A DNA stretch of 64,000 bases from an uncultured Bacteroidota bacterium (GCA_937950125.1 CALFEP010000082.1:39446-103445), one strand, 5' to 3'; positions 11,775 through 59,907 are shown, counted from the first letter of the stretch. Notes: generated by a model not told the origin, from the letters alone. A program made the numbers and translations.

Positions 11775-11830
11775 GTTAATTTGTTATTAATATGAATGTT
11801 GGATTTAGGCCTGCATTGGCAAGCGGTGGG

Positions 11831-11838
11831 CAAAAGTA
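11831..11838 (-). promoter_or_regulatory. Candidate -7 box (TACTTTTG) upstream of the YfcC-like gene
   Basis: The reverse complement is TACTTTTG. It lies 56 nt upstream of the ATG at 11774, just after the stop of the last glycan-locus gene. Confidence 0.3.
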
Positions 11839-11847
11839 AAAAAATAG

Positions 11848-14603: not shown

Positions 14604-14624
14604 AAACCATTCTATATTAATCGA

Positions 14625-30664: not shown

Positions 30665-33600
30665 TTAATCATTTCGCGTCAGTTGATTATCAATTTTCCT
30701 TTTGAAAATTACGGTGTCCTTTTCAGCAAAAATTTTCACAAACCCGTTTTTATCCATTTCTTCAACAATTTGCTTCCATCCTTTTTCCAGTATATGCGTT
30801 GAATGATTACCAGTCCAGTCGAAATTATCAGCCGATTGAACTACCGGTGCTTCAAATAAGACTGTTTGGATTTTTGCAGGAATCCATCGCATTAACAGCA
30901 GAAGTTCCCGCCATTTCAGATGCTCTATCATGTGTGTGGCAATCAGCGCATTATATTTTTCCGAAAGATCTAGGTTCCAAATGTAATCGCTCAGTGGAAT
31001 CTGACGATAGCGGTTATCCTTGCATTTTTGGGTAGATTGATCGGAGATTACATCAAAATTATCCCACTCTTCAACAAACCCGTATCGTGATAAAATATCC
31101 CGTGCAAGATCGCCCCGCCATCCACCAATTTCGAGAACACGGGCAGGTCTCGGAACGTGGTTTTCGATCCATTGAAATACAAAAGGCAGTGTGTAGTGAG
31201 CCTGTTCAGGATATTTGTGTAATGAATCATTTGCAATATCTACAAGTTGACCGAAGGTCATAAGGTCATAGTTTTCTCTGAAAAGGTCCATTTCCCTGAT
31301 GGATTTGGCCAAAGGGCTTTCCTCGTCAGTCTTCGGTAGTTCTTTGATGCTTTCTGCGGGTTGTCCGGTTTTGTCCGGAACTGGCAGCAACGCTTGTTTG
31401 GCAGCCTTAACCCAGGTTTTCAGCTTAACTGAGTTATAATCCTTACCAGCAATTATATAGCTAAACAGATCGAGCCATGCAATACGGCGGTTTGGAAATG
31501 TCTTTACCAGTTTCCAAAGAGCAATCATTCCTGCCTTTTTGTCTTTAAGCTGGTAACAGAGATTAACGTACACTTTGTGGTGCATGTAATAAGCATCCCA
31601 GTGATTTTTGAGAAAACCCCGGTTTCGGTCGATTATTTTTCCATAATTGACCATCTTCAACCTGCTGAATTTTTCATGCGTAAGCTGCCCATCACCGTGG
31701 TGATGAATTTTGACCAAAACCTCAGGGACCGTCCTGAAATTGTAATACTTCGATAGCCGCAACATAAAATCGGTGTCCTCGCCCACCCTGAGCGTTTCAT
31801 CGTAAAATCCGGTTTTTTTCAAACATTCCCGCTTCACGCTCAGCCCAAAGCCATTGCCGATGGCCGTCGAAACCATCAACCCCTGTTCAAGGGTTTCAAA
31901 ATCGGCCGGCCACAGCTGCGTTCTGATAATTTCCTCACCAGTGGCAGTATCTTTTACACGGGTAATGCCTGTCCACACAAAGCCGGGATTGTTGTTGGCC
32001 TCATCAAATGTTTGCCTGATTTTCATCAAAATATCCGGGAGGTACTCATCGTCATCATCCAGAAAGTTGAGGTATTTGCCGGAGGCGTTTTTCATTCCGG
32101 TGTTGTAAGCCCCAGCCGCGCCTTTTGAATTTTCGTGCACCAGGTATTTAATTCTCGGATCGTTGAACGATTCAACCATAGTTCGGGTTTCAAGGCTGTT
32201 TGCATCGTCCACAATAATTTGCTCCCAATTGGTAAACGACTGCTTTTGAACGCTTTCTATGTTTCTTCTAAGAAAGCCGGGGCGATTGTTGGTTGGTGTG
32301 ATGATGCTGAAAACCGGATTGGGATTGAAACCGGGAGGTTCGTTTAATATGGAGGCCATTCTCGTCTCCATTTCCAGAAATCCGGCGTACACAGCATGCG
32401 ACTTTTGATAAAGCTGCCGATGCCTTCGGAATGCCTGCAAGGAAGCCAAATCATGCAATTGTATGTTCATTAAGCGTCGTCCCGACCGACTGTCAACAGG
32501 ATGCTGATAGGTCCTGATAAAAACAAGTGTTTCTTCAATTTTCCTTACCTCTCTTCCCAACTCAAGAATTGAGAGCCAGAAATCAAAATCTTCGTATCCG
32601 TGTTGCAGGAAACTGGAATATCCTTCGGTTTTCTCCCAGTCACACCTTCTGTAACAGGCATTTGCTATGATGCAATTTGCCCTCAACATACCTTCAAAAG
32701 TGTAGTCATGGATACGAAACGGTTCGTATTTATGGCCAAACAGAAATGCGTTTGAGTAAACTATGCCAACATTTGGATTTGTATCCATCACTTCAACACA
32801 TTTGTGTAAAAACTCAGGCGCAATCCTGTCATCGGCATCCAGGTTAACAATCAGGTCGCCTTTGGCGTGGGTTATAGCCAGGTTTCGGGCATTGGCCGGA
32901 CCATGATTTGCTGTATAAAAAATCCTGACTTTTTTGTGTCTGATTTTTTTCAGAACCGTTGCCGTTTCGTCGGTTGAGCCATCATCAACAATAATTATTT
33001 CATAGAATTGAAAGGTTTGATTAAAAATGGATTGTAGATTTTCGAGAATGTATTTACCATGATTAAAACACGGAACAACCACCGTTACCCGAACGGGCAA
33101 GCTGAACCGGATGTGAACTTTGTAAAGGGCTTTTTTAATCAGAAGCCAACTGTGGCGCATGATAAGGCCAACATGATACCTCCAGTCGTCGGGTGGTGGC
33201 GGCGGTGAATGAACAATTTCGCGTATCACCTCCTTTTCAACCACCTTTTCAACCTCGGTCACAACCGACCTATCAGCAAAAATATGGAAGTACTGTGCCA
33301 TGGTGCCTCCATAGCTTCTCAAATGGGTTTCGATGCGCTGGATATCCGAACCTCCAAAATTGTAGTAACGAACCCTGCTGCTAAAATACCTGATGGCTTC
33401 CCAATTGGCCAGCGAATGCCCCCCGAGATGTCCGTACGTTGGATCGCTTGCACTGAGCAGAGCATATGCTGATTTTGGATTGAAAACCAAATAAATGGCA
33501 GCGTGAGGTGTTCCAACATTATCGAAAACAGTAATGATGCGCCTTTGATCTCGTTTTACAATTTCATCATCCAACAACTTAAAATCGTCGTAAGAAAACC

Positions 33601-34198
33601 GGAAGGTAAGGCCTTGCCGCTTATAGGTTAGCTCAACAAGTGAGTAAAATGCGCGAAGATCGTCCGTAACCAGTGAAATTAGATTGTGTGAAAGGGCTTT
33701 TCTAATGTTCCTTTTCCTGTTGGAATTTAACTGATTCCAAAGTTCCTTTTCCGTCTTTCCTTCAAAATCAATTAAATATGTGTAGCGCGTCATCTGCTTG
33801 TAGCCCCTCCACCTGAAAGGCAGCCAATCGATGAAGTTGTGAGAAGTACAAAACTGCTCAAAATCATCATAAGGGATCTCATCAAGCAGCAATTCAAGCC
33901 ATTGCCGTTCAAGGGTTGACCTGTCGTGTTCGGATAAACGGCTCAGGTCTTTGAAAAGCGGACCCAGCGTTCGGGTAATTGGAGGCTCATTAATTTTCCC
34001 AAGATAATAAGCCAGCGGGATTCCGGCAACAATTTCATCGTTTTCAAATACAGCCAGGATTTTAAAATTCCCTTTGGTGATGGCGTCGAGCCACCACGAA
34101 TAACAAAAGACATCGCCCTGTGGGGAATCATCCACAAAGCGGTTCCATAGGTCGAATTGAGCTGGCAGTAATTCAATTGCAAAACTTTTCATTTTCAT
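30665..34198 (-). CDS. 1177-aa four-domain protein: FemAB-like GNAT + GT2 + GT2 + class I methyltransferase-like domain
   Basis: aa 1-310: 'LNSNRKRNIRKALSHNL...AAIYLVFNPKSAYALLSASDP...YNFGGS'. GT2-A: 'VTVVVPCFNHGKYILENLQSIFNQTFQFYEIIIVDDGSTDET...NLDADD'. GT2-B: 'FSIITPTNNRPGFLRRNIESVQKQSFTNWEQIIVDDANS...FLDDDDE'. C-terminus: 'VLEIGGWRGDLARDIL...ALIATHMIEHL'. Confidence 0.85.
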   Translation of the reverse strand: MKMKSFAIELLPAQFDLWNRFVDDSPQGDVFCYSWWLDAITKGNFKILAVFENDEIVAGIPLAYYLGKINEPPITRTLGPLFKDLSRLSEHDRSTLERQWLELLLDEIPYDDFEQFCTSHNFIDWLPFRWRGYKQMTRYTYLIDFEGKTEKELWNQLNSNRKRNIRKALSHNLISLVTDDLRAFYSLVELTYKRQGLTFRFSYDDFKLLDDEIVKRDQRRIITVFDNVGTPHAAIYLVFNPKSAYALLSASDPTYGHLGGHSLANWEAIRYFSSRVRYYNFGGSDIQRIETHLRSYGGTMAQYFHIFADRSVVTEVEKVVEKEVIREIVHSPPPPPDDWRYHVGLIMRHSWLLIKKALYKVHIRFSLPVRVTVVVPCFNHGKYILENLQSIFNQTFQFYEIIIVDDGSTDETATVLKKIRHKKVRIFYTANHGPANARNLAITHAKGDLIVNLDADDRIAPEFLHKCVEVMDTNPNVGIVYSNAFLFGHKYEPFRIHDYTFEGMLRANCIIANACYRRCDWEKTEGYSSFLQHGYEDFDFWLSILELGREVRKIEETLVFIRTYQHPVDSRSGRRLMNIQLHDLASLQAFRRHRQLYQKSHAVYAGFLEMETRMASILNEPPGFNPNPVFSIITPTNNRPGFLRRNIESVQKQSFTNWEQIIVDDANSLETRTMVESFNDPRIKYLVHENSKGAAGAYNTGMKNASGKYLNFLDDDDEYLPDILMKIRQTFDEANNNPGFVWTGITRVKDTATGEEIIRTQLWPADFETLEQGLMVSTAIGNGFGLSVKRECLKKTGFYDETLRVGEDTDFMLRLSKYYNFRTVPEVLVKIHHHGDGQLTHEKFSRLKMVNYGKIIDRNRGFLKNHWDAYYMHHKVYVNLCYQLKDKKAGMIALWKLVKTFPNRRIAWLDLFSYIIAGKDYNSVKLKTWVKAAKQALLPVPDKTGQPAESIKELPKTDEESPLAKSIREMDLFRENYDLMTFGQLVDIANDSLHKYPEQAHYTLPFVFQWIENHVPRPARVLEIGGWRGDLARDILSRYGFVEEWDNFDVISDQSTQKCKDNRYRQIPLSDYIWNLDLSEKYNALIATHMIEHLKWRELLLLMRWIPAKIQTVLFEAPVVQSADNFDWTGNHSTHILEKGWKQIVEEMDKNGFVKIFAEKDTVIFKRKIDNQLTRND

Positions 34199-34249: not shown

Positions 34250-37243
34250 TCAGATCATTTCTTCAACCATCTTTTCCCATTTCTGGTGCATGTATTTTTG
34301 ATCGAGTACTTCATGGGCATATTTTTTGGCAGATGCCGAAATGCGTGACCGCATTTCATCATCATTTTTCAGTTCGACTATACTTTTAGCAAATGCTTCA
34401 TAATCACCAGGTTCGATTAAATATCCGTTGTCGCCATCATTAATCAAAGTAGGCAGCCCACCAACCCTGGAGGCAACTACCGGAACTCCGGCAGCAAGTG
34501 CCTCGAGTACTGCATTTGGACGGCCATCCATACGCGAAGGGAGTATGAGTACATCAGCCACCGATAACAAATCAACCGATTCGACAAAACCCGGGGTAAA
34601 TATTACATCCTGCAACTCGCTGAGTGCGATAAGATTCTTAATGTCCTCGAAAAGTGGCCCATATCCACACATCACAAATATTATTTCTTTGCTCCTTGTC
34701 TTTTTGGCAATTTCAACAACCGCTTCCGGGCCTTTCTCTTCCGAAAATCTACCTAAAAAACCTACCACAAATTTGTTTTGGCATATTCCAAGTTGTGACT
34801 TTATCGTGTCCTTATCTCTTTTAAGCGAGAACTTTATGAGGTCAACACCATTGTGAATCAGCTTGATTTTATCCGGTTTTTCAGCATAATGGTTCAGTAA
34901 TAAATCCCTGATCTTTTCATTTTCAACGACGTTCAGATCAATATACCGGGCATATTTCCGGTTGTTTTTCATGTGACCTTCTTCATTAAATATGAAATCA
35001 ATTATTTTCAGGCAGGGATTTTCGGATTTGATGCGGGGAAGCAAAGGGTAAGTAACCACACTGCCAGCCTGAATCAAAACATCGGCTTTCTTTGCTAAGA
35101 TCAGCTGGAGGATGAATTGCTGCATTTGTTGCTGCGTGGACAAAAATTTTGGCAGGTGATAAATTTCTTTTGTAAACTTTTCGTAAAAGGGAGTATTGTC
35201 GCCGTATTCTTTAGTCACCGGAACGGTAGTAAAAAATGCAATGTCGTATTTTTTGGAAAGATACCCGAAGATGTTGATAAAAATGGAGTCAACACCGCCA
35301 ATAATCATGAAAGGCAGCGCCACCAGTATTCGTTTTCTGGTTTTAGTGTGACCCATATTAATAAACGGATGTTTGATTTTGAAGTTGGCTTCGACCGATT
35401 TTTGCCGGATACGCCGATAGGCTGGAGCATCCAGATAAACATTTTCCTGTCTGATAATTTCCTTTTGCTCATTAACAGAGGTTTCGCAAAGCTGCGAAAG
35501 GCTTTTATGGTGCACCCTGTAAAGCATGAGTGGTTCGGGAATTGCCTTAAACCGGAACCCTGATCCGGCTAATCGTACCCAAAATTCCCAATCCTCACTC
35601 ACATGTCCTTTGCCAATAGGGTAATCCTTGTACCCACCAGCTTTTTCCCAGGCAGACTTCCTGAAAACTGCATTTGTCGCTACCAAATTCCCTTCAATGG
35701 TAAGGGTTTCGTAGGTCGCATCGGCTGTCTTCCAAAGCGTCTCCGACTCGCCAAAACTTTGCACCCAGGGATAAACCACATCATAATTCAGGGCTTCGAG
35801 ATAGAACACTGCCTTTTCGAGGTAAGTTGGCAGGATGGCGTCGTCGGAGTCGAGGCAACAAATGTATTTTCCTTTTGCCAGTTTGATTCCAAAATTCCGG
35901 TTATCTCCTACAAGATGCCTCCCTCCTCTGAAATGCACCTGAATTTTGGGATGAATGATCTGCTTCAGAACCTCAACCGTTTTAGTATCATCCGAACCGC
36001 CGTCAACAACAATGATTTCATAATTAATGAAAGTTTGATTTAGCACCGATTCAATGGTTTCGTGGATGTATTTCCCATAATTATAATTTGGAATCACCAC
36101 ACTTACCAGCGGATCGCCTGCAGGCCATTTTTGGTTGACAATTGTTGTCCTGCGAAGTAATCGGATAGTATTGCTCACCTTCTTTCGAAGTTTCTCAGGC
36201 AGCAGACCCGTCCAAACCAAAGTTGATACGATCCCTTTCAAAATCAGATTGGTAATTTTACCCAGCATCGAATTTTTTGGAAAAACACTATGGTAGCTAT
36301 TACGCAGGCTGTCAGCAATTTTCCATGATTTTGAGCTGAAAATCAAGTCGAGTGTTGACTGTAATTCAGCATTTTTCTGCTGGTTTTTTTGCAGCCCCAT
36401 TGCCAGACCCAGTTTAAAAAAATCGTAATACTTCAGGCCGGGATTGTAGCTTTTCTGGCTTTCGATGGCTTCAAAAATATCGGTGTAATGTTTTTCATCG
36501 GCCAATCTGATCAGATCGTGATAAAAGAATGCAACCATCCGGTGACGTTCTTCAATGGTTTTGCCCTCCCATGTCCCCTGGGCTGTTACTGCATGATGCG
36601 CCATGATTTCATCCAGAAAATGAATCTTCCCTTTTTGTGCAAAAACGAGATGAATTGGCCAATCGGGAAAGGCTAAGGTCTTAAACAAATCGGGGAAATC
36701 GCTGTTGCAATTTCTGTAAACCACCGAACAGTTTGCGATAAAGTTTTCTTTGATCAAATCTTGAAACGTAAACCCGTTTTTTTGTCCAAATAGGTGGCTG
36801 TAAAACTTATTATGCTCCTCAAAATCCACCTCAGCGCCACCGACAAAACCCACGCGGTGAAAGCTAATGCTGTAATCCGGATGGTTCTGCATAAAATCAA
36901 TCTGCTTCTGCAACTTCAGCGGGTCAGTCCAATAGTCGTCGCCTTCGCAAATGGCTAAATATTTACCTTTTGCCTGCGGAAAAACGATCTGCGTGTAAAT
37001 TTCATACAGGCTTTTTCCTTTGCTAAACAAGTTTTCAGGTTGGATTAACAATCGAACAATCTCCGGATTTTCCTGCTGAAATTTTCGGATAATCAGTGTG
37101 GTTCCATCATCGGAGGCATCATCATGGATTAAAATCTCAACAGGAAAATCAGTTTTTTGCATCAGGAAGGATTCAATTGCTTTTCCGATGCAGTTTTTGT
37201 GATTGTATGTCAGGCAGCAGATGCTAACGAGAGGTTGTGTCAT
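34250..37243 (-). CDS. GT2 + GT2 + GT4 triple-domain glycosyltransferase
   Basis: 'VSICCLTYNHKNCIGKAIESFLMQKTDFPVEILIHDDASDDGT', 'VSVVIPNYNYGKYIHETIESVLNQTFINYEIIVVDGGSDD...CLDSDD', and a C-terminal GT-B block 'SRMDGRPNAVLEALAAGVPVVASRVGGLPTLI'. The track start at 37285 is a TTG, so the ATG at 37243 (MTQPLVSICC) is preferred. Confidence 0.88.
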   Translation of the reverse strand: MTQPLVSICCLTYNHKNCIGKAIESFLMQKTDFPVEILIHDDASDDGTTLIIRKFQQENPEIVRLLIQPENLFSKGKSLYEIYTQIVFPQAKGKYLAICEGDDYWTDPLKLQKQIDFMQNHPDYSISFHRVGFVGGAEVDFEEHNKFYSHLFGQKNGFTFQDLIKENFIANCSVVYRNCNSDFPDLFKTLAFPDWPIHLVFAQKGKIHFLDEIMAHHAVTAQGTWEGKTIEERHRMVAFFYHDLIRLADEKHYTDIFEAIESQKSYNPGLKYYDFFKLGLAMGLQKNQQKNAELQSTLDLIFSSKSWKIADSLRNSYHSVFPKNSMLGKITNLILKGIVSTLVWTGLLPEKLRKKVSNTIRLLRRTTIVNQKWPAGDPLVSVVIPNYNYGKYIHETIESVLNQTFINYEIIVVDGGSDDTKTVEVLKQIIHPKIQVHFRGGRHLVGDNRNFGIKLAKGKYICCLDSDDAILPTYLEKAVFYLEALNYDVVYPWVQSFGESETLWKTADATYETLTIEGNLVATNAVFRKSAWEKAGGYKDYPIGKGHVSEDWEFWVRLAGSGFRFKAIPEPLMLYRVHHKSLSQLCETSVNEQKEIIRQENVYLDAPAYRRIRQKSVEANFKIKHPFINMGHTKTRKRILVALPFMIIGGVDSIFINIFGYLSKKYDIAFFTTVPVTKEYGDNTPFYEKFTKEIYHLPKFLSTQQQMQQFILQLILAKKADVLIQAGSVVTYPLLPRIKSENPCLKIIDFIFNEEGHMKNNRKYARYIDLNVVENEKIRDLLLNHYAEKPDKIKLIHNGVDLIKFSLKRDKDTIKSQLGICQNKFVVGFLGRFSEEKGPEAVVEIAKKTRSKEIIFVMCGYGPLFEDIKNLIALSELQDVIFTPGFVESVDLLSVADVLILPSRMDGRPNAVLEALAAGVPVVASRVGGLPTLINDGDNGYLIEPGDYEAFAKSIVELKNDDEMRSRISASAKKYAHEVLDQKYMHQKWEKMVEEMI

Positions 37244-37292
37244 TTTTTTGTTAGTGATGGGAGTCGTGGGAAACGGGCAATTCAATTACACT

Positions 37293-40200
37293 TCAGGCAC
37301 TTTCAACAATTTCAATTTCCTCCTCCGTCAATCCGTAAAGCTCATACACCAGTTGATTGATCCGGTTTTCGCAGAAATCAATTTTGCCTTTCAACAATTG
37401 TCGGTCGCTTTCGAGGGTGAGGGTGGGGAGTTGGTGATTACAATTTTCCAGTTGAGATACAAGATTGATAAGCTCTATCTGAATTCCAATCTCCTTATTA
37501 TTTTTGCTATCAATATTTTTTACAGGAAAGGGCTTTATGTATTCAGGTGTAAGTCTGTAGGCATTTCCACGAAGAGCAGTGCCTGTGTTGGAAAGAAAAA
37601 ACCAAAACAACCTCGAACCCAGCAATGCAGCGATGTATTTCATACCCAAACAGGAATACTCGTCTTTAAGAATTACACTATGAATGGCGGGCCCATGAAA
37701 AAATTCACCTTTTTCATCAACGGCAATTCTGCTTTCTACCAACAAATCGGGAATCAGAATTTTTGGTTTATTGTACCATCCAAGGCTTCTGGCAGCTGAA
37801 TATTTGTAAAAATCTTCAGTCGTAAAACTCAACTTTCGCTTTTGTAAAATTGTCCTTACTTTTTTAAAATATTCAGAAGCCAATGGAAATTCCTTTTTCA
37901 TTTTTTTGAACTCTGTTAAACAAACAGGTTCATGGGAAGAATAAGGAAAAATCAAATGCTTGTGATATTTCCCGATAGTGTATCTTCTTACATCAGAACC
38001 ATAAAGAAAAGGCCTCAGCAAAGCGGTTTCTATCTGCACCCTTTCATGGAGAATTTCTGAGTAGAAAGTCGATATCTCATTATTGCTTTCCACAACATCA
38101 ACAAGATAAACACTGTCGTTGCCGGTTGATGAACCCTTGAAGATTTTTAAACAGATGTCGTTCAGCAATAATTTGTTATGATTGATTTTCTCAAAAATCT
38201 CACTTTTTGATGAATCAACAAAATTCCATTTCCCGATAAGGCATTCAGAGTCCAGATTTTTCTTTTTTTCCGAATAAAGAAAATCAACCATATTGTTGAC
38301 TAACTCAATCTTTTGATATGAAAAAGTTTCCACTGGAATATTTGATAAAAACAACAGACAGGTGTAGGTTGTTGCATTAGTAAATACTTGGTTTGTTGTG
38401 AAATTATTGATTTGACTTACTGCCTTTTTACCTGCTAACAAGAGTCTGATAGAATTTCCATATTCAGCAGTAAAAAACTTATTTGGAAGAATCATCCCGG
38501 ACCGACCAGTACTATTGAGAATTTTTAGGGTTTTCTCAATAAATAATACATACAAATCATAATTTCCATAATTTGCACTGTGATAATACTTCTTAAAATA
38601 ATTTGTTTGGGTAGTGTTGATTGTCTGAATTCTGACGTAAGGCGGATTTCCAATCACTACATCGAAGCCGCTTTTGAATTTGGCAACCATTTCGGGTTCG
38701 CTCGCCTGGCTAACCTCTTCTTCCAATTGCGAAACATACTCCAGTGTTTTTTGGGCATGATGCTTTGCTTTTTTGGCAAGCGTCAGCAAGTTTTCTTCCT
38801 TTCCTGGCTCAACGCCATATACAGCTTTACGCCGAAACACTTCGGGAAATGCACTTACCCAATTAAATGGCTTTATCTTTTTCTCGTCGCCAAAATCGAG
38901 TTGTGTCGAATAAAAATCGGTATCGATCAGGCTGTTTCCGCTCTGGATGTTGTGATCAAGCGAAGGCAATACCCTTTCGTTGAATAATTTGAATTGCGAG
39001 TTGATGCTTGCTTCGGTTTCGCCCTCGAGGCATTTGAGCAGCAGACTGAGTTTGGTTACTTCCACGGCATTTACGTCAATATCAACGCCATAAATGTTAT
39101 TCAGAAGAATCCGTTTCTTTTCGGCAGTTGTGAGTGAACCTGTGGGAGTGAGCGGGTTGCTTTTGCTACCTTTCGATGGTTTACCGTGATTGCTGTAATA
39201 ATCTTTGTGCCAGTCTAACAGAAACTGGTAAGCGCCTAACAGAAAACTTCCGCTGCCACAGGCCGGGTCAACAATTTTTAATTCGCTTACCTCTTTGGGT
39301 GTTTTGCCTTCGACCAGCGTGCCAACGGTGTTTTTTACAATATAATCGACAATGTATTGTGGTGTGTAGTAAACTCCGCCAGCCTTACGCACTTCGGGCT
39401 TTTCTTCAATTTTGGCATGGTGTGCCGGAGTAATCCTGATAATTTTTCCAAGAAACTGTTCATAAGCTGTACCCAGAATTTCGACCGGCATAACGCCAAA
39501 TTCGTATTCGCTTTTGGGGTAGTAAAGTTCCTCAACAAGGTTTTTAATTACCTTGTTATCAATAATTAAACTGTGGCTAATCTTATCCTTGCTGAAATCG
39601 AAGAGGCCAGAGTTGTATTTTTCGTCAGCAATTTTGAATACCTGAAACAGATTTTGGTAAAAATCGCCCGACTGAATGCAGTGCTTGAGATTGTTTTCCG
39701 GTTCAATGCCCCTGTCTTCGGCAATTCTGAGAAAAATGACACGGTCGATGGTTTGCTGCACCACATAGTTAATTTCTTCTTCGGTAAGGGTTTTATTGTT
39801 CCAGCTCACTGATGTGGCCAGATAAGTGCGCCAGTTGTCCAACGATTGCAGGAATTCTTTATCAACAGTTGCCGTTCCTTTTTTGTGTGTATCGCTTTGG
39901 ACAAACCTATCGAAACTCCCTTTCAAAACCTGCTCTTTGGCAAAGGTTTCCCAAAGAAAATCGAATTTTTCGTTGTATTCGCGGAAAGTGAAATAGGCAA
40001 TCCGGCCAACGTGTGGTTTGTCGGCATTATTTGGCTTTTGGGTGCAGTCGTACACAGCAAACTCCTCAAAATCGGTAAGAATACATACCGGAAGTTTTGC
40101 ATTCCAGCCATATCGCCTGACCTGGTAAGCTGGCTGAATTTCATCTTTTATGTAAACGGCTGGTTTTTTGGCTTCCACAAAAAACAGCCGCTTTCCTCCC

Positions 40201-40457
40201 ACCAGCCTGAACGAATAATCGGGGGCTCTGTTTGATTTTCCATCCTTTACCTTGTCCTCGTGAATTACTTCGCGATAGCTTTCGGCATAGCCATTTTCGT
40301 TATCAACATCCCAGCCAAGCGCCTTAAAAAATGGGTCAATAAAATCGCGGCGGGTAAGGGTTTCGTTGTAGTCTGATTTTTTGTAAGATTCGTACTGCTC
40401 ACCAAAGCGTTTGACGAGTTCAGAAACTTTTTGAAAAGCTGCTTCCTTGTTTGTCAT
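37293..40457 (-). CDS. Single-chain type IIG restriction-modification enzyme (PD-ExK nuclease + gamma-class N6-adenine methyltransferase + TaqI-like C-terminal specificity domain)
   Basis: N-terminus 'NRAPDYSFRLVGGKRLFFVEAKKP' carries the nuclease motif (PD...E-A-K). MTase motif I is 'IVDPACGSGSFLLGAY' and motif IV is 'VVIGNPPYVRIQ'. The TaqI_C-like block is 'LLRPFLYGSDVRRYTIGKYHKHLIFPYS'. ATG start. Confidence 0.85.
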   Translation of the reverse strand: MTNKEAAFQKVSELVKRFGEQYESYKKSDYNETLTRRDFIDPFFKALGWDVDNENGYAESYREVIHEDKVKDGKSNRAPDYSFRLVGGKRLFFVEAKKPAVYIKDEIQPAYQVRRYGWNAKLPVCILTDFEEFAVYDCTQKPNNADKPHVGRIAYFTFREYNEKFDFLWETFAKEQVLKGSFDRFVQSDTHKKGTATVDKEFLQSLDNWRTYLATSVSWNNKTLTEEEINYVVQQTIDRVIFLRIAEDRGIEPENNLKHCIQSGDFYQNLFQVFKIADEKYNSGLFDFSKDKISHSLIIDNKVIKNLVEELYYPKSEYEFGVMPVEILGTAYEQFLGKIIRITPAHHAKIEEKPEVRKAGGVYYTPQYIVDYIVKNTVGTLVEGKTPKEVSELKIVDPACGSGSFLLGAYQFLLDWHKDYYSNHGKPSKGSKSNPLTPTGSLTTAEKKRILLNNIYGVDIDVNAVEVTKLSLLLKCLEGETEASINSQFKLFNERVLPSLDHNIQSGNSLIDTDFYSTQLDFGDEKKIKPFNWVSAFPEVFRRKAVYGVEPGKEENLLTLAKKAKHHAQKTLEYVSQLEEEVSQASEPEMVAKFKSGFDVVIGNPPYVRIQTINTTQTNYFKKYYHSANYGNYDLYVLFIEKTLKILNSTGRSGMILPNKFFTAEYGNSIRLLLAGKKAVSQINNFTTNQVFTNATTYTCLLFLSNIPVETFSYQKIELVNNMVDFLYSEKKKNLDSECLIGKWNFVDSSKSEIFEKINHNKLLLNDICLKIFKGSSTGNDSVYLVDVVESNNEISTFYSEILHERVQIETALLRPFLYGSDVRRYTIGKYHKHLIFPYSSHEPVCLTEFKKMKKEFPLASEYFKKVRTILQKRKLSFTTEDFYKYSAARSLGWYNKPKILIPDLLVESRIAVDEKGEFFHGPAIHSVILKDEYSCLGMKYIAALLGSRLFWFFLSNTGTALRGNAYRLTPEYIKPFPVKNIDSKNNKEIGIQIELINLVSQLENCNHQLPTLTLESDRQLLKGKIDFCENRINQLVYELYGLTEEEIEIVESA

Positions 40458-40487
40458 ATAATTTGTTTTGCATAAATAGGCACTTAT

Positions 40488-40506
40488 CCGATGCTTTAAA
40501 CATCGG
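40488..40506 (-). promoter_or_regulatory. Small stem-loop between the wzm stop and the RM gene start
   Basis: CCGATG-ctttaaa-CATCGG (6 bp stem, 7 nt loop) within the 56-nt spacer. No U-tract follows, so it is unlikely to be a strong terminator. Confidence 0.2.
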
Positions 40507-40513
40507 GCAGATG

Positions 40514-41335
40514 TTACAACTCATCCCCAAACCCCGGTCGAAGCCGGGTGAAGGTATAGATTCCAAGAACAAAAAGCAAAATACTGATCATCCAAAAAAA
40601 CACATTCATTTCGGGAAACTCAAAAAACCAGCGGCGTTCAACCAGGGCGTAACGGTAACCCTCGGTGATGTAAAAAAACGGATTGAGCAGTGCGATAAAC
40701 CGAAGTTTGCTGTCACTTATCATCGTGTAGGGCCAAATGATGGGCGTTGCCCAAAACAAGATGGTGGTAAAAATATTAACAATGTGTGCCATGTCTTTGA
40801 TGAAAACATTGATGGAAGAAACAAACCATCCTATTCCCGACAACAAGAAAATGGTTGCAAACAGGTAATAAAAAATCTGTATCCAATAAATGGATGGGGC
40901 AATGTTGAAGCTAAACATCAGCAAAAGCAAAATACATCCCATCATCACCGCATGAACAATCATTCCCGAAAAAATTTTAATAATGGGGATAAGCATTACA
41001 GGAAATTGTGTTTTTTTTATCAGGTAGCCATATTCAGTAATGGCCATACACGAAACGATGATGGTCTGGCTGATGAAAAGCCAGGGAATAAGTCCGGCAA
41101 TGAGCCAGGCGCCATAGTGTATGCCCGATGATGTATATCCTGAGCGCAATCCATAGGTAAAGGCAAACCAAACCACCAAAACATACACTGCAGGTTGTAC
41201 AAAAGCCCATGGCAACCCAATGTAGGATGAAAGGTATCTGCTTTGAAAATCGCGCCAGATTAGGGTTTTCATCAGGAAGCGATTGGTAAACAAGGCCTTT
41301 ATTACTTCAAAAATATCTTTGTAAAATTTTTTCAT
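40514..41335 (-). CDS. wzm: ABC-2 type polysaccharide export permease (Wzm/TagG-like)
   Basis: 273 aa with six predicted TM helices. N-terminal 'LIWRDFQSRYLSSYIGLPWAFVQP' is typical of the ABC-2 glycan exporter family. Directly downstream of the ATPase gene. Confidence 0.9.
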   Translation of the reverse strand: MKKFYKDIFEVIKALFTNRFLMKTLIWRDFQSRYLSSYIGLPWAFVQPAVYVLVVWFAFTYGLRSGYTSSGIHYGAWLIAGLIPWLFISQTIIVSCMAITEYGYLIKKTQFPVMLIPIIKIFSGMIVHAVMMGCILLLLMFSFNIAPSIYWIQIFYYLFATIFLLSGIGWFVSSINVFIKDMAHIVNIFTTILFWATPIIWPYTMISDSKLRFIALLNPFFYITEGYRYALVERRWFFEFPEMNVFFWMISILLFVLGIYTFTRLRPGFGDEL

Positions 41336-41350: not shown

Positions 41351-42667
41351 TTAATGGGTTAAAACACTGCCCGGTTCCAGGTTAAAAACCCGTGCATCGG
41401 GTATAACAATCTGAGTACCCATGTTGTAAACCGGCTTTGGAATATCAACCGATACGATTAACCCATCCTCCTGGGTGTAAATAAATTCGATATGGCCCTT
41501 GTTCAACTGTGTTATGGCCAGCGAAATGGTGTAATTTCCATTGGCAAGGTTTGGAAAAATAAATTCGGTGACAATGATGTTGGGCTCATCTTTCTTCAAG
41601 GTAATGGTCTGCCCGTAATGATGGGTATTGATTTTGAACAGTTCGGTGCTGAAGTGACCGTTCATGGTTAACTGAAATCCTGGCTGGACAACATTTTCAT
41701 GAGCCATGACCAGACACAAAACAAATACTTTCTGCCCTCCTCTGGCCTTTGTAATCGATTGTCGGGTATCAGCATCCACAATTGTTGCATGATAAATCTG
41801 CACCTGTCCATCGCCTTTCCACTGAAAATTGTCCAAATCAATCCAATTCAAACCTGCAAACAATGGTAATGATAAAATGCTGCTAAAGCCGTTTTTTGCT
41901 ACCGTTCCTGCTTTTTCCCTTGTGGTGTTGGTTTGCACCATAAAAGCCTGGTAACTGTCAGTTACTGTAACCGGGTTACCATCGGCCACAATTTCGCCTT
42001 TGTTTATCCAGATGGCACGTGTACAAAAGTCTTTAACAGCGCTCAGGCTATGGCTGCAAAACACAATGGTTTTGCCCGACTCCTTTATTTCTTTGATCTT
42101 GCGATAGCATTTCTGCTGAAAACGCATATCACCGACCGAAAGCGCCTCGTCGATGATCAGTATATCGGGATTGATGTTGATGTTCATCGAAAAGGCCAAA
42201 CGCACATACATTCCGCTCGAATAGCTTTTTACCGGCTGCCAGGCATACTCGCCGATGTCGGCAAAATCGAGTATGGCCCGCACACGTTCTTTCATATCCT
42301 TTTTACGAAAACCCTGCAAAGCTCCAATAAAAAAAATATTTTCCACACCCGTCATCTCTTCATTAAAACCACCTCCAAGTTCTAGCAGTGCTGTAACCCG
42401 GCCGTTGCATTTGTAAAATCCGGATGTGGGCGAAACTACCGAAGCCAGAATCTTCAGTAAGGTGGACTTGCCGCTGCCGTTGTGCCCTACCACACCAAGC
42501 ACCTCACCCTTTTCAACGGTAAAACTGACATTGTTGAGCGCATGATGCCAGGTGTGATATTTTTTACGCAAGGGATGAAAAAACTCCTTCATCCGGTCGC
42601 GGTGCGATTGATACAGCCGATAAGTTTTTGAGAGTGAATTAACTACTATTACTGATTCTGCCTGCAT
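41351..42667 (-). CDS. wzt: Polysaccharide ABC transporter ATP-binding protein with C-terminal carbohydrate-binding-type extension (Wzt-like)
   Basis: Walker A 'GVVGHNGSGKSTLLKIL', signature 'YSSGMYVRLAFS' and Walker B 'ILIIDEALSVGD'. An additional C-terminal domain of about 190 aa follows ('...VQIYHATIVDADTRQ...LANGNYTISLAI...'), as in Wzt proteins that recognise capped glycan termini. Confidence 0.9.
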   Translation of the reverse strand: MQAESVIVVNSLSKTYRLYQSHRDRMKEFFHPLRKKYHTWHHALNNVSFTVEKGEVLGVVGHNGSGKSTLLKILASVVSPTSGFYKCNGRVTALLELGGGFNEEMTGVENIFFIGALQGFRKKDMKERVRAILDFADIGEYAWQPVKSYSSGMYVRLAFSMNININPDILIIDEALSVGDMRFQQKCYRKIKEIKESGKTIVFCSHSLSAVKDFCTRAIWINKGEIVADGNPVTVTDSYQAFMVQTNTTREKAGTVAKNGFSSILSLPLFAGLNWIDLDNFQWKGDGQVQIYHATIVDADTRQSITKARGGQKVFVLCLVMAHENVVQPGFQLTMNGHFSTELFKINTHHYGQTITLKKDEPNIIVTEFIFPNLANGNYTISLAITQLNKGHIEFIYTQEDGLIVSVDIPKPVYNMGTQIVIPDARVFNLEPGSVLTH

Positions 42668-42717
42668 TTAAGAAACATTAGTTATACCTTTTAAGCGCAG
42701 CAAAGCTATTGAGATTT

Positions 42718-44094
42718 TTAGTTTTTTCCTGGGAAATTATCCTGTTTATCTGCGGTATGGTATAAATTCAGCTCATGTTTTTTCAGATAATCCAACACAT
42801 CCTGAATACTCGCATTATTAGGATGAACCCTGAAATGGCAAACCGAATCTGCTTTGTCAGCATCTTCGTACTTCAGATAGTTGTATTTCCAGTTTGATTT
42901 CATCGCATACCAGGCCTCCATGTCTTTCACCGATTTTACGGATGAGAGTTGCATAAAAATGATGAAAATAAAAAATACCGGAATCAGGAGTGATTTCTTG
43001 GGTAAACTCAGACTATTCAGATAAAAATAAACGCCAATGATTGATGGAACAAGGTAAACCATGTAACGGGAAGACCCAGCAAATTCAAAACCTAAACGAA
43101 GCCTTCCGAACGCCAGATTTACCACAAAAAGCAGTGAGTAAGCCACAAGAATAAACGACATTTTACTCATCAGTACCTGCTTTTCGTCCTGATTGGTTCT
43201 TGAGTATATTCCTATCAGGCTCTTTATCAAAACAAAAACAACAACAGAAAAAACCATGAATCCAAAAACAAATGGCAACATTCCGATATGCTTAAAACCG
43301 AAGAAACCAGCATAACTGTGTGATATGTATTGCAAGTATTGCCAGGGTTTGCTCCACAAGATCAAAATGTGAACACTCGCATAATCCGTTTTGTAGCCTT
43401 TAAAAAACAAGACCAAAGTGAAAACAGCAATCAGGAAAGAAACAAAGCCGATAAAACCGGACTTTTTTCGGCCACAGGTGAAATCAATAATGGTTTCTGA
43501 CGCAAACAGCATTATCGTGACCAACCCCATAAAAAATCCAAAGGCCGACCAAACAAGGTTCAGATTTAAGAAAAGCAAAAGGATATTCCGTAAAAGCCGG
43601 GATTTCACGAAAAGTGTAAGACAAATCAACGATACCAATATTGCAGGCACCCCACTGTACGACAAAAATGGGGTTATGTTCAGTACTTCATACTGGGTAA
43701 ATGACAAAACAATGACCGGAATGACAACATCAAAAAAATTGATGTTTCTGAATAACCTGTATTTCACAAAAAGGTAAACCAAAAAACTCAGAAAAATTAA
43801 AAAAGCTATTACAATCGAAATCCAGTTTGAATTCCAGCCGCTTAATGCATTAAGCCATCCGGTAATGACCAGACCGATGCCCATCCGGTGTGGCCCAAAC
43901 TGAAAATGAAACTGCTTTAGCAAGGTGTAATCCCAAATAAAAACCCGGTGAAAATCCCAGGCATCTGAAAAAAGCAGGTTTACACTGTATTTTTTAACAA
44001 AATAGAACCAGCAGGCAGCGATACAAACAGAGGCCAACGCCGCCCCAACAGTAAAATATTTACTGTCAACAATTTTTTGATACAATTTTTTCAT
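42718..44094 (-). CDS. Polytopic membrane protein, paralog C of the unassigned family
   Basis: 'KKYSVNLLFSDAWDF', 'FQFGPHRMGIG', 'FGRLRLGFEFAGSSRYMVY' and 'VLDYLKKHELNLY' are colinear with paralog A (16587..17978). Confidence 0.8.
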   Translation of the reverse strand: MKKLYQKIVDSKYFTVGAALASVCIAACWFYFVKKYSVNLLFSDAWDFHRVFIWDYTLLKQFHFQFGPHRMGIGLVITGWLNALSGWNSNWISIVIAFLIFLSFLVYLFVKYRLFRNINFFDVVIPVIVLSFTQYEVLNITPFLSYSGVPAILVSLICLTLFVKSRLLRNILLLFLNLNLVWSAFGFFMGLVTIMLFASETIIDFTCGRKKSGFIGFVSFLIAVFTLVLFFKGYKTDYASVHILILWSKPWQYLQYISHSYAGFFGFKHIGMLPFVFGFMVFSVVVFVLIKSLIGIYSRTNQDEKQVLMSKMSFILVAYSLLFVVNLAFGRLRLGFEFAGSSRYMVYLVPSIIGVYFYLNSLSLPKKSLLIPVFFIFIIFMQLSSVKSVKDMEAWYAMKSNWKYNYLKYEDADKADSVCHFRVHPNNASIQDVLDYLKKHELNLYHTADKQDNFPGKN

Positions 44095-49251: not shown

Positions 49252-49289
49252 GCACAAGATTTTATGCTTGACATTAAAATATTATAGAT

Positions 49290-50670
49290 CAATCAGAAAA
49301 AATAAAAATCAGACTTTGGGAATATTGGGTAATGCAACAAATGCAAATGAGTAGAACGAGGTAAGCGAAATAATAACGATCATCAGTTTGACGAATATGG
49401 ATTTAACAGATTCGTGATTTTTGGTGAACCAAAAACCGAAAACCCCCAATATTGACAATAAATACCTCCCTTGTGGCTGAAAATCGCTGACCCAGGAGAA
49501 ATATGATGACCTGTAAATGATGAAAAATAAAAGGCTAAAAAAATCAAAGGAAGTAGCTTGATTGTGGGAAAACTATGAAGCAGTCTGAATACAACGATGA
49601 ATCCAATTAAGATTGAAATTAATAAAACATGATCTTGTAATTCAATGGATGGCTTTTGATTGACTTATAGCCAAAAACACCAAAAAATGACATAGCGGTT
49701 TTTGTGTGCCAACTCCATTTCTCCGAATACAATTCGGAATACTTAACCCCCTTCTCCTTCAGGAAAAGCCCAAAACAAGATGTTTCAAGAGTTTTTTCAG
49801 CATGTTTGAAACGGGCGTGCGCATATTTTTCCTTGAATTCGGAAATCAATAAACGCCTGTTAAATCCATGCAATTTCACATCATACAAATACCTCGGCAT
49901 CAAAAATAAAAGCGTCAACCCAATTAATGCCAGGCATTTTAGGGAAATCCTTGTCGATTCCCTTTATTATCCACTAAATACAAAAACACGATTATTGCAA
50001 AGAAGACAAGTATCAGGCAAAAATTTTTCTTTGAAAAAATCCGAAGTGCCAACAGGATTGCCATGATTACAGCGCCTTATAATATGGCCGTGGGTTTTGG
50101 GTGAAACAAGAAATTTGTTAAACGAAATGTTATCATTAACAAGCTGGTAAACAACAAGTATCGATAAAAATAAAGCGAACGCATCGGTGTTAACATACGA
50201 AAACAACTACCAGATTTGCGGAGAATTTTGCTAAACCAGTAGCAGGGGCTTTACTTTTCGGCTTCCTTTTAAAAACAGAACCATCAAACTTAAAAACAGC
50301 ACTTTGTTGAATAATCTTATGGATAGCAGCGAATCGTTGACAATGTACCCAACCAGAACCGAGAATTTTCAATTAAAAAATAACAGGGATCAAAATCCGT
50401 CAACCGTGAATGCCCGTAAGCTGAAAAACCTCCCCTGATGTCCGGATCACTTACCACCGGTGTAAGCCAATGATTTTGATACTATGTAACCGCTTCCGCC
50501 TGGACATGTTCATCGGGATGTGCATTGAACCTGCTTGTGACAGCCATCGTAATTATGAACAAAAAGATGATTAAAAAAATGGTGCTTAGTAGCACATTCA
50601 ATCCGGGATGAAGATACCGGCAAACCCGGTTTTTAATGGCAATTAATATCCTGCAGTTTTTGTATTTCAT
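49290..50670 (-). pseudogene. Frameshifted remnant of a second DUF2142-like/GT-C membrane protein gene
   Basis: The N-terminal piece (50482..50670) reads 'LLSTIFLIIFLFIITMAVTSRFNAHPDEHVQAEAV', a TM helix followed by a PDExH motif. Further hydrophobic segments continue in at least four different frames. For example, after the stop at 49619 the frame shifts to 'ISILIGFIVVFRLLHSFPTIKLLPLIFLAFYFSSF...' and then to 'LMIVIISLTSFYSFAFVALPNIPKV'. Confidence 0.5.
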
Positions 50671-52376
50671 AGTTGCCCAATTTCAGATGTTGGAAGCCTG
50701 CCTTCTTTCTTTCCATATTTTATGTAATGAACCAGTGGATTCATCCCAACTTCTTTTACATCAGGATTTTTGGCCAGATAAAATACGGAATCGAATTTTG
50801 TTGACGGATTTCTACTTTCAAAGCCTCCGTAAAGCAGAAAATGCTTTTCCGCATCCATTCCCGATTCTTTAACATCAGGATTGTTTTGCAGGTAAAAATC
50901 CACCTCAAAAAGGCTGCTTTCACCTATCAGGCGGATGTTTCTTTGCAGTGTGATTTTCTTGTTAACCCATCGGTAAAATTTAGCGGGGTGAAGCAGTGAC
51001 AAGCTTTTGGCAAAACGATAAACAGAACTGCGCTTTATAGAAACAATCTCATTTTTGAGCGCTTCAATTTTACTATTTAGTTGGCTTATTTCAATTTGAT
51101 GATGCAATGTTTTCCCAACGAAATCTTCATTGAGCCTTGTCTCCTCAAAATTCATTTGAGCAGACTCATTTTTGAGGTTCCTGGTTTTTTCCTGCCTCTG
51201 TTTAATGATTATTTCGAGTGCATCAAAAACCTTTATTCCAGTCGCCAAATATTCTGCATCTATTCCAACATGGTCAAATTCAACAGTTCCTTCGGTTTCG
51301 ATCAAAATCTGTGGGTCGGAATTTGAAAAATAATAAACCGAATTTTCGACTACACATGCATTTGAAGTGAGACGAAAATTGATAATAACCTCATTTTCGT
51401 TATCGAAAAACCTGATGGACTTTAGCTTTACAACAGCAAAATCGTTGAGCGGATCAAATCTCAGCCTCGAATAACATTGCCCAGTTGGCAATTTAAAAGG
51501 TAATGGATTATTAGAAATTTCGATACACGCCGAATTATCTTCGTTGAAGTCCCTACTTCCGGTTTGATAAAAAAGCTGTGCGAAATATTTTTTTTGGATA
51601 ACGAGGCTTTCGAGAACCTGGGTTGGTAGCAATGAAAGGGTTACCGGATATTTTTGTTTCAGGTAGTAAATGAGGTGTTTAAGCTGGTCGGATTTGAAAT
51701 TCAGCGATTTATTCAAATGGTGAACGCGGTAAAACGACAGTGGTTCCCCCGGAATAAAAGCAACCGTTCCGCCCATTTTGCCCACTCTCAGCCAGAGTTC
51801 ATAATCTTCCCATCCATAAGGTGGCATCATGTTATCATACATTCCAGCTTTTATGAGTTCGAATCTGCGGAACATGGCCATTGCATCAATGTACGGAGCT
51901 TCGAGTAGTTTCAGGTAATCGAAAGGTTGATTTGATCGCAGGCCGCAATTTTCGCCAGTTTCATGTAAAAAATTCTGAATTGAGGCATAACAAGCCATGG
52001 CTTCATGATTTTGCCTCAAGGTGGCAACATGAATCTTCAGGCAATCCTTCCGGATGTAATTATCAGAATCGAGGAAAAATAAAAATTCACCGCGGGCATT
52101 AGCAATTCCACGGTTCCGGCTTGATATCAGCCCAAGGTTGGTTTCATTTTTTATCAGCCTGACAGGGAAAGGGCTTCCTTTCATTATTTCCTCAATTACG
52201 TTAACACTTTCATCAGTGCTGGCATCATCCACAATGATTACTTCCATTTTATCGGATTCAAAATCCGAATTAATCACGCTCTGCAGGCACTGCCCGAGGT
52301 AATGGGCATAATTGTAATTGGGGATGATTACGGAAACAAGCACGCTGTCAGAAGAATTATTGGAGGTGGCAATCAT
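50667..52376 (-). CDS. GT2 glycosyltransferase + 'FNE...LRFDP' module + coiled coil + 2x 'NPDV/NPL.HY' repeats
   Basis: 'VSVIIPNYNYAHYLGQCLQSVINSDFESDKMEVIIVDDASTDES...FLDSDN'. Module at aa 265-385 ('QLFYQTGSRDFNEDNS...YSRLRFDP'). Heptad-rich aa 385-445. C-terminus 'FEVDFYLQNNPDVKESGMDAEKHFLLYGGFESRNP' and 'FDSVFYLAKNPDVKEVGMNPLVHYIKYGKKEGRLP'. Confidence 0.88.
   Translation of the reverse strand: MIATSNNSSDSVLVSVIIPNYNYAHYLGQCLQSVINSDFESDKMEVIIVDDASTDESVNVIEEIMKGSPFPVRLIKNETNLGLISSRNRGIANARGEFLFFLDSDNYIRKDCLKIHVATLRQNHEAMACYASIQNFLHETGENCGLRSNQPFDYLKLLEAPYIDAMAMFRRFELIKAGMYDNMMPPYGWEDYELWLRVGKMGGTVAFIPGEPLSFYRVHHLNKSLNFKSDQLKHLIYYLKQKYPVTLSLLPTQVLESLVIQKKYFAQLFYQTGSRDFNEDNSACIEISNNPLPFKLPTGQCYSRLRFDPLNDFAVVKLKSIRFFDNENEVIINFRLTSNACVVENSVYYFSNSDPQILIETEGTVEFDHVGIDAEYLATGIKVFDALEIIIKQRQEKTRNLKNESAQMNFEETRLNEDFVGKTLHHQIEISQLNSKIEALKNEIVSIKRSSVYRFAKSLSLLHPAKFYRWVNKKITLQRNIRLIGESSLFEVDFYLQNNPDVKESGMDAEKHFLLYGGFESRNPSTKFDSVFYLAKNPDVKEVGMNPLVHYIKYGKKEGRLPTSEIGQL
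50670..50918 (-). repeat. Two C-terminal 'NPDV/NPL.HY...EGR.P' protein repeats
   Basis: See the sequences quoted for 50667..52376. Same repeat family as 26032..26625 and 63772..64000. Confidence 0.8.
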
Positions 52377-59367: not shown

Positions 59368-59525
59368 ATGGGGTAATCGTATTTCAGCATCGATAGGATG
59401 CTAATACTGGCCTTCTGACCCATCACAAAAACCAATTTGGAAATCCTCATGAAGCTCTTTATTTCCGTGGTTAGTATTTTGAACCTGATGAAAATGTTTA
59501 AATGTCCTGCTGGTCAGGATAACTT

Positions 59526-59720
59526 TTAGATAATAGTCCTGATTTGGGGAAGTGGACTGGTCAGATAACATGAATTAGAATCCATGATCTTTCTTATCAT
59601 TTCATTTGCATGGTTGAATTGATTCGCAATAGCCCGGGTTTGAATTCCGATTTCATGTGTTGACTTCTCAAGTTCAGCGATTTTTTGATTTTCGGTGACG
59701 CATTTCCTATTTTCCAGCAT
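59526..59720 (-). pseudogene. Remnant of a coiled-coil 'S.SW.IT.PLR'-type C-terminal tail
   Basis: 'ENQKIAELEKSTHEIGIQTRAIANQF...IMDSNSCYLTSPLPQIR' resembles the tails of the 931-aa protein (LSRSWKITKPLRKL) and of the first module of the 997-aa protein. No catalytic domain is attached. Confidence 0.3.
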
Positions 59721-59907
59721 GATTCGTTGATCATAACCGGCAAGAAAAAAATGAAGTTGCCATACTTTTCATCATCCGGCAGGTTTCGCCACAAGTAGTA
59801 AAGGATTTATCTGAAAGTCACAGATTCCTCACAAACCGCATGTACACCAGATGAATTGGAAATATGATAAATACCCGTGATTTCATCATGATGACAGAAT
59901 GTTGTTT

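Follow-up and report, generated by a model that had tools for sequence, protein, structure and literature searches.

In type IIG restriction-modification (RM) enzymes, the specificity domain at the C terminus recognizes an asymmetric DNA site, a gamma-class methyltransferase N6-methylates an adenine within that site, marking host DNA, and incoming DNA that lacks this methylation is cut, a fixed distance away, by a PD..EAK nuclease at the N terminus. Eco57I recognizes CTGAAG (16/14) and has the catalytic motif PD-x13-EAK. RM genes are usually patchily distributed. Here we describe a gene predicted to encode a type IIG enzyme in a stretch of 64,000 nucleotides (nt) from an uncultured Bacteroidota bacterium (GCA_937950125.1, CALFEP010000082.1:39446-103445; hereafter, the window), where it stands between the exporter gene wzm and a glycosyltransferase (GT) gene of a glycan operon.

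Several described systems come close to this gene. Eco57I needs a separate second-strand methyltransferase (PMC2582602), and BpuSI, like Eco57I, needs companion methylases (PMC3185434, PMC2582602). RM.BpuSI joins a PD-x15-ExK nuclease, a helical bundle, an M.TaqI-like methyltransferase and a target recognition domain (TRD) into a single polypeptide (PMC3185434). Type IIG enzymes that stand alone are also known, namely the MmeI family, Tth111II and TaqII (PMC3185434, PMC2582602). Earlier work has documented RM genes inserted into operon-like clusters as well as allelic TRD diversity among type IIG genes (Furuta, Abe and Kobayashi 2010, PMC2853133). We consider it likely that the gene in the window encodes an ordinary lone type IIG enzyme, which inserted into the glycan operon long ago, was inherited within a clade and is expressed mainly by read-through.

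An RM gene inserted between wzm and a glycosyltransferase gene

Related loci, here numbered with the prefix L, were retrieved through the closest homologues of the RM enzyme and through wzm. An earlier reading of the window, made from its sequence without database searches (the sequence-only reading), had placed the gene as an insertion inside the glycan operon, and comparison of orthologous loci bore this out by revealing two empty sites. In L012, from a metagenome-assembled genome (MAG) of Lentimicrobiaceae whose wzm and wzt are 82% and 68% identical to those of the window, wzm is followed after a 25-nt spacer by the GT orthologue, without an RM gene; the orthologues of the 997- and 1,177-amino-acid (aa) GTs stand in that order, each 72% identical. 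In L116 (wzm 66% identical), wzm is again followed by both GT orthologues (51% and 59% identical), without an RM gene. Because L012 and L116 both have the order wzt-wzm-GT-GT with no RM gene, that order is ancestral, and the 3,270 nt that the window has where L012 has 25 nt are therefore an insert.

The insert bears no signature of mobility. Pfam was run on 37 ORFs (open reading frames) of the window of at least 150 aa, the eight unscanned ones lying on the opposite strand and overlapping scanned genes, and neither a transposase nor an integrase was among the 37. No tRNA or Rfam element was found, and a repeat search found no direct or inverted repeats of note around the RM gene. These results agree with the sequence-only reading, which had seen no flanking transposase, integrase or repeats, and no mobile-element borders of the insert were found.

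The RM gene fills the identical slot in L005/L006 (wzm 89%, enzyme 79% identical), in L011 (wzm 87%, enzyme 77% over the first 705 aa) and in L111 (wzm 81%, enzyme 84% over the 139 aa before the contig ends). In a neighbour-joining tree of wzm, built without bootstrap support, the window clusters with the RM-bearing L005, L011 and L111; their sister group is the pair L012 and L112, which has no RM gene, and the outgroups lack it too. Among more distant wzm loci (L013-L030, L113-L136), no RM match was found. On these comparisons, one insertion would be the most parsimonious history of the gene in this slot.

We propose that a segment of 3.27 kb with a single gene, made up of the ORF and about 80 nt more, moved into the short spacer between wzm and the GT gene of this ABC (ATP-binding cassette)-transporter-dependent operon before a small Lentimicrobiaceae-like clade of Bacteroidota diversified. 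It would then have passed vertically down at least four lineages, with strong purifying selection acting on it and its TRD diversifying. A single-gene system that requires no partner methylase could occupy an operon spacer and leave the operon unbroken.

The RM-bearing lineages do not have the same glycan genes around their wzt-wzm-RM core. In L005 (12983-18412), the RM gene is followed by an additional gene (GT_STM0557_N, 481 aa), and the orthologue of the 997-aa GT has an added N-terminal methyltransferase domain, giving 1,294 aa in total; on the evidence of L005, genes turn over at the junction that follows wzm. The C-terminal region of Wzt, which binds the glycan end cap, is 56% identical between L111 (2-655) and the window, compared with 81% for wzm, so the exported glycans probably differ between lineages that share the RM gene.

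Enzyme architecture and conservation

Endonuclease and methyltransferase domains lie in the same 1,054-aa polypeptide, which starts with ATG, and PADLOC places it in type IIG (top model REase_MTase_IIG, E = 3.7e-236). In the Pfam scan, Eco57I (PF07669) scored 146.8 bits against a cut-off of 25.3; its match, together with those of N6_Mtase and MmeI_Mtase (PF20473, 52.6 bits), spans aa 388-735, and TaqI_C follows at aa 816-979 (46.4 bits, cut-off 26.5). Motif DPACGSGSF (aa 397-405) precedes NPPY (aa 604-607) and the TRD is C-terminal to both, which is the gamma-class order. The TRD, in the same chain, aligns with that of CamA. The nuclease motifs are APDYSF (aa 78-83) and FFVEAKK (aa 92-98).

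We aligned 35 homologues that are 54-79% identical. Invariant across all of them are P79, D80, Y81, E95, A96, K97, K98 and P99 of the nuclease, D397 and A399-F405 of methyltransferase motif I, and G603, N604, P605 and P606 of motif IV, and residues from about 690 to 1000 are hypervariable. The sequence-only reading had described a 1,054-aa protein with these motifs and a TaqI-like specificity domain, all of which are present in the ORF and the Pfam matches. Its description of a complete single-chain type IIG enzyme is upheld by the domain order, the PADLOC match and the invariant catalytic residues, the conservation of the nuclease motif being a check that it had itself put forward. Judged by its sequence, the protein is a putative restriction-modification-specificity fusion of type IIG with intact catalytic motifs, and is predicted to recognize, methylate and cut DNA as known type IIG enzymes do.

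No simple-sequence repeat of four or more units and no homopolymer of eight or more occurs in or before the gene, which has only two A7 runs; no sign of phase variation by repeat slippage was thus found.

The enzyme belongs to a large family, with at least 8,000 database proteins of the same domain set found at E ≤ 1e-10. Its closest homologues in a plasmid collection are distant, at about 32% identity. A sequence-profile search identified CamA, M.BseCI, BREX PglX/BrxX, BsaXI, M.TaqI and DrdV as relatives of solved structure, with E values of 9e-59 for CamA and 3e-42 for M.BseCI over the methyltransferase and TRD half (aa 355-990). In an AlphaFold model (mean predicted local distance difference test score (pLDDT) 71), the methyltransferase and TRD are modelled well. 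A fold search with this model retrieved CamA (template modelling score (TM) 0.79), M.BseCI (TM 0.72), MmeI (PDB 5HR4; 922 aligned columns, TM 0.62 normalized to MmeI) and, by Foldseek, BpuSI (PDB 3S1S; E = 1e-15, with a low TM of 0.28-0.33). The fold search backed only the methyltransferase/TRD half and an overall type IIG/IIL resemblance.

No DNA methyltransferase gene was found among the scanned window ORFs or adjoining those homologues whose context was read; the nearby methyltransferases in the window are small-molecule class I types only (Methyltransf_11/23/25). With no adjoining DNA methyltransferase, the gene therefore constitutes a lone type IIG system. The best NCBIfam PglX score was 117.9 bits, against a cut-off of 500, and no BREX partner gene (brx/pglZ) was found among the Pfam-scanned ORFs of the window. 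With matches below threshold and partner genes missing, membership in BREX, DISARM or another multi-gene defence system was rejected.

Selection and exchange of the specificity domain

The ratio of non-synonymous to synonymous substitution rates (dN/dS), calculated by the Nei-Gojobori method for the window against L005, was 0.034 in the nuclease (range 0.034-0.039), 0.049 in the methyltransferase, 0.053 in the helical linker and 0.146 in the TRD, with 0.074 for wzm and 0.119 for wzt; these values are rough because the synonymous sites are near saturation (proportion of differing synonymous sites (pS) 0.5-0.7). Clear constraint on the nuclease is an argument that restriction has been kept as an activity, and not methylation alone.

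TRD identity to the window is 63% in L005 and 27% over the aligned part in L011. The flanks of the L011 TRD are well conserved (87% identity over the N-terminal 350 aa and 85% over the last 54 aa), and the domain itself has been replaced there in a cassette-like exchange. In the last 54 codons of the gene, pS is 0.48-0.50, below the 0.67-0.73 of the remainder, and the residues that these codons encode stay 80-85% identical even when the TRD is replaced. Perhaps this end segment is a recombination arm that has been conserved, or else it carries an overlapping signal that serves the gene downstream.

The sequence-only reading had also noted an AT-rich specificity half. The bias is real, the TRD being the 900-bp stretch of lowest GC content in the window (0.326 at 37701; mean 0.410, s.d. 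0.027), and it is a property of the family rather than of this locus. Among 62 full-length homologues, drawn from the fetched RM loci (L005-L110), the TRD has a lower GC content than the core in 98%, by a mean of -6.6 points GC and -11 points GC at third codon positions (GC3); core GC minus flank GC averages +0.2 points. The low GC of the TRD across the family led us to reject it as a mark of recent foreign origin at this locus. One reading suggested by this pattern is that TRD cassettes are drawn from a circulating AT-rich pool; another is that they are exempt from codon adaptation.

Transcription signals

The RM gene and its neighbours all lie on the minus strand, separated by spacers of 56 nt after wzm and 49 nt before the GT gene, as the sequence-only reading had described, down to the small hairpin in the first. 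The GT start used here (ATG at 37243) is backed by homologue alignments and the public gene call; a mechanical ORF list extends it to TTG at 37285. The upstream hairpin (40488-40506; 8 bp, centroid energy -10 kcal/mol; spacer z-score -1.8 against shuffles) has no U-tract after it and so is not a classical terminator. The downstream spacer folds at -1.9 kcal/mol (z = +0.42). No RNA element was found in either spacer; neither contains a terminator-like site, and the regional count of such sites equals the shuffle expectation.

Because the genes share a strand, both spacers are below 60 nt and there is no terminator on either side, read-through from the operon is likely, and for the same reasons the downstream GT genes would depend on transcription through the RM gene. 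These features make the arrangement that expected of a shared transcription unit, and the RM gene is likely co-transcribed with the glycan operon. Its expression would come, probably for the most part, from operon read-through, and transcription of the downstream GT genes would have to cross it.

The Bacteroidota promoter has the -7 consensus TAnnTTTG. The closest genome records by wzm are uncultured Lentimicrobiaceae and Bacteroidales MAGs, so Bacteroidota promoter rules apply and not sigma-70 hexamers; a sigma-70 scan does not model Bacteroidota promoters, and the window was scanned for TAnnTTTG. An exact box, TAGCTTTG, lies at 42701-42708, 34 nt upstream of the wzt start codon. The only box found before the RM gene is a one-mismatch version, TATTTATG, at 40471-40478, 13 nt before the ATG, and the scan found no -33 TTTG at the right spacing. 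The upstream spacers are unconserved between RM-bearing lineages.

Alternative explanations

Several observations weigh against the explanation we favour, an old insertion inherited in one clade and mainly read through from the operon. The RM gene has been kept in lineages that have diverged by as much as 19% in wzm, a persistence beyond the usual patchiness of such genes, and its unusual length leaves some room for a locus-specific benefit. AlphaFold modelled aa 60-153, in the nuclease region, at a pLDDT below 50, so the nuclease fold is assigned from sequence. Near-saturation of the synonymous sites means that strict vertical inheritance and within-clade recombination are not distinguishable. 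An exact TAGCTTTG box stands 23 nt before the RM start in both L005 (~9741-9748) and L011 (~5139-5146) and lines up by eye with the TATTTATG box of the window; with an exact box in those two lineages and a one-mismatch box in the window, the gene may therefore also have a promoter of its own.

An additional weak promoter of this kind is possible, as a feature that is not conserved: in the window the box is degenerate, and L111 has none before its RM gene. Carried further, the same boxes could belong to an autonomous selfish gene, expressed from the 56-nt spacer independently of the operon, for which position would be irrelevant. A second enzyme gene, in L007, has flanking spacers of 193 and 273 nt and a weak terminator-like hairpin upstream, which would suit autonomy. 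We think this explanation unlikely, although it fares better than the others considered below. The -33 element is missing at the right spacing, and with no terminator upstream or downstream, read-through from wzm is possible and is needed by the genes beyond. Autonomy is moreover compatible with our preferred explanation and does not exclude it.

Selection might instead have fixed the enzyme in the glycan operon. In one version, the operon promoter ties restriction to production of the surface glycan, so that one switch co-regulates a two-layer barrier against phage; in the other, the RM gene is an addiction-like anchor that stabilizes the conserved wzt-wzm export module at a boundary of GT exchange. 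The filling of the same slot in four lineages while the surrounding GT genes change is in keeping with such coupling, as are the lack of terminators and of a conserved promoter-like element before the gene. Both versions nevertheless seem improbable to us, on the strength of how the enzyme family is distributed. From the family, we took 80 genome loci with a best-segment identity of 40-76% and searched them with profiles of our own making for GT2, GT4, wzm, wzt, DegT, Wzy and Bac_transf. Glycan profiles matched 13 of the 932 flanking ORFs (1.4%), and in none of the 80 loci did two or more glycan genes lie at most three genes away from the enzyme. When 116 immediate neighbours were surveyed with Pfam, no GT family turned up in at least two of them, the commonest families being HTH_5/HTH_20, TIR_2, rve, ParE_toxin, Fic and Bro-N. 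A family-wide link between the enzyme and glycan loci was rejected by these two surveys together.

Among individual homologues, the closest non-syntenic ones, P0004, P0005, P0006 and P0008 (59-64% identical), lie outside glycan clusters, in unrelated contexts. Homologue P0003 (64% identical; L007:8001-11111, context 5529-15768) does lie inside a different glycan operon, of the Wzx/Wzy type, in the same direction as its neighbours, and so counts in favour of coupling. Its gene is placed between DegT and a 336-aa gene. The order o267-FdtA-DegT-o336-GT4-Hexapep-Wzy is kept in many Bacteroidota genomes, and the enzyme occurs in 0 of 79 related loci. In L007, then, an enzyme gene has entered a glycan operon whose genes run in its own direction, in an event independent of that in the window. 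Of about 86 contexts sampled, two are landings of this kind (2.3%); glycan genes make up 1.4% of the flanks, a similar share, so chance suffices to account for both. At the locus itself, the close relatives L012 and L112 are without the RM gene, and the flanking glycan genes still turn over, so the RM gene does not freeze the locus. The link between enzyme and glycan genes is therefore limited to one clade and compatible with chance. The sequence-only reading had suggested that DNA-level and receptor-level barriers to phage are coupled in one transcription unit; this proposal found no support in the family comparison, the contexts of the nearest non-syntenic homologues or the match to background density. 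Functional coupling of the RM gene to the glycan genes is unsupported beyond adjacency, and we infer that a link is absent.

A still less probable history makes the RM gene original to the locus, with later deletion in L012, L112 and L116. The RM core has the GC content of its neighbours (0.42) and so carries no compositional sign of foreign origin, as this history would have it. The RM-less order wzt-wzm-GT-GT is nevertheless found in both the sister lineage (L012) and a distant outgroup (L116), so loss would need at least two precise deletions compared with one insertion, and the distant wzm loci have no RM match.

That the protein acts as a methyltransferase only, with a dead nuclease, whether as an epigenetic or phase-variable controller of a regulon or as a PglX-like BREX component, is scarcely credible: its methyltransferase core does resemble PglX/BrxX, and type IIG enzymes are reportedly able to serve as phase-variable regulators in Campylobacter, but the nuclease catalytic residues are invariant, dN/dS is lowest in the nuclease of all parts of the protein, the PglX score is far below its cut-off with no BREX partners, and neither a simple-sequence repeat nor a homopolymer of eight or more is present.

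Genomic setting

The glycan-synthesis region exceeds 50 kb, running from about 11.8 kb to the right end of the window with all genes on the minus strand; to its left are the housekeeping genes infC, thrS, ffh, folD and dcuC. Its genes include GT2/GT4 fusion glycosyltransferases, RgpF, MBOAT and AlgX-like proteins, along with acyltransferases, sulfotransferases, a pyruvyl transferase, DUF2142, S-adenosylmethionine (SAM) methyltransferases and the wzt/wzm exporter. The RM gene is the sole non-glycan gene in the middle of the cluster (Table 1).

Table 1. Features of the RM gene and of its insertion site, with positions counted from the first letter of the window.
Feature	Position	Strand	Description
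Predicted type IIG RM gene	37293..40457	-	1,054 aa; nuclease, helical linker, N6-adenine methyltransferase, TRD and C-terminal helices in one chain
PD-(D/E)XK nuclease domain, N-terminal	40029..40370	-	aa 30-143; PF04313 (HSDR_N), 43 bits
Nuclease catalytic codons P79-D80...E95-A96-K97	40167-40223	-	conservation across 35 homologues
Gamma-class N6-adenine DNA methyltransferase domain	38253..39395	-	aa 355-735; PF07669, PF02384, PF20473
Methyltransferase motif I, VDPACGSGSF	39243-39272	-	aa 396-405
Methyltransferase motif IV, GNPPY	38637-38651	-	aa 603-607
TRD (specificity domain)	37458..38240	-	aa 740-1000; AT-rich, hypervariable; PF12950 (TaqI_C)
C-terminal helices after TRD (last 54 codons)	37296..37457	-	aa 1001-1054; conserved
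wzm (ABC-2 permease)	40514..41335	-	upstream border of insertion site; PF01061; orthologues 81-89% identical in L005, L011, L111, L012, L112
wzt (ABC ATPase with Wzt_C glycan-binding domain)	41351..42667	-	PF00005, PF14524
GT2+GT4 fusion glycosyltransferase	34250..37243	-	997 aa; downstream border of insertion site; Pfam
Second large glycosyltransferase	30665..34198	-	1,177 aa; part of the ancestral order wzt-wzm-GT-GT; Pfam
wzm/RM spacer	40458..40513	-	56 nt; holds hairpin and degenerate -7 box
RM/GT spacer	37244..37292	-	49 nt; unstructured, without terminator

Just upstream of wzt, a 458-aa protein is encoded at 42718-44094 that has no Pfam or NCBIfam match. Its homologues adjoin wzt/wzm in L014, L112, L114, L115 and L117, and this recurrence marks it as an uncharacterized conserved component of ABC-type glycan loci.

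Two stretches within the tightly packed cluster, 49258-50666 (1.4 kb) and 59368-60531 (1.2 kb), contain no minus-strand ORF of at least 100 aa; one 120-aa plus-strand ORF falls in the first. Both stretches may be regulatory regions or decayed genes. A repeat of about 35 aa, F(D/E)xxFYLxxNPDVKExGMNPLxHYxxYGxxEGR, is present in two copies in each of two different glycosyltransferases, at the C terminus of the product of 50667-52376 and at the N terminus of the product of 60532-63996.

Comparison with known systems

The locus offers a clean, datable case of a one-gene RM system entering the spacer of a working operon and leaving it unbroken, and the gene has lasted through speciation while its DNA specificity changed. 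It illustrates why lone type IIG enzymes spread with such ease and is a natural test case for polar effects and for read-through expression of defence genes. The arrangement of RM and glycan genes is not in itself a demonstration of a new defence strategy.

As in the insertions documented earlier (PMC2853133), the RM gene is a unit between co-directional genes, its flanks are intact and its TRD is replaced between conserved flanks; it differs from those cases in having no long target duplication or flanking repeat, in having a glycan operon as host and in persisting over several lineages. Our literature searches turned up no published case of RM genes lying within wzm/wzt operons; this absence is a gap in description and not a new principle.

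CamA and M.BseCI are clear homologues of the methyltransferase and TRD half (aa 355-990), with TM values of 0.72-0.79, but they are stand-alone methylases, orphan or classical, and have neither a nuclease domain nor a helical linker. RM.BpuSI shares the one-chain architecture; it differs in having two companion methyltransferases in its operon, and the sequence profile of the RM protein did not find it.

Eco57I gives the RM protein its best Pfam family match and resembles it in being a single chain of about 1,000 aa with an N-terminal PD...EAK motif, an NPPY N6-adenine methyltransferase and a C-terminal TRD. The nuclease spacing differs slightly, being PD-x14-EAK in the RM protein, one residue more than in Eco57I. 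The second difference is in gene number: Eco57I has a separate second-strand methyltransferase, whereas neither the RM gene nor its relatives have an adjoining one.

In this respect, the gene resembles the MmeI family (type IIL), whose members are likewise lone single genes with the order nuclease, helical linker, methyltransferase and TRD and with a freely evolving specificity domain. It differs from them in its TaqI_C-type TRD and in a sequence identity of about 12%, and the other MmeI Pfam models (N-terminal, helical, TRD and C-terminal) do not reach E = 0.001 in the RM protein; because only the methyltransferase model matches, the protein falls outside the MmeI family proper. By these comparisons, the RM protein is closest to the Eco57I Pfam family in sequence, and its gene is organized like those of the lone enzymes of the MmeI type.

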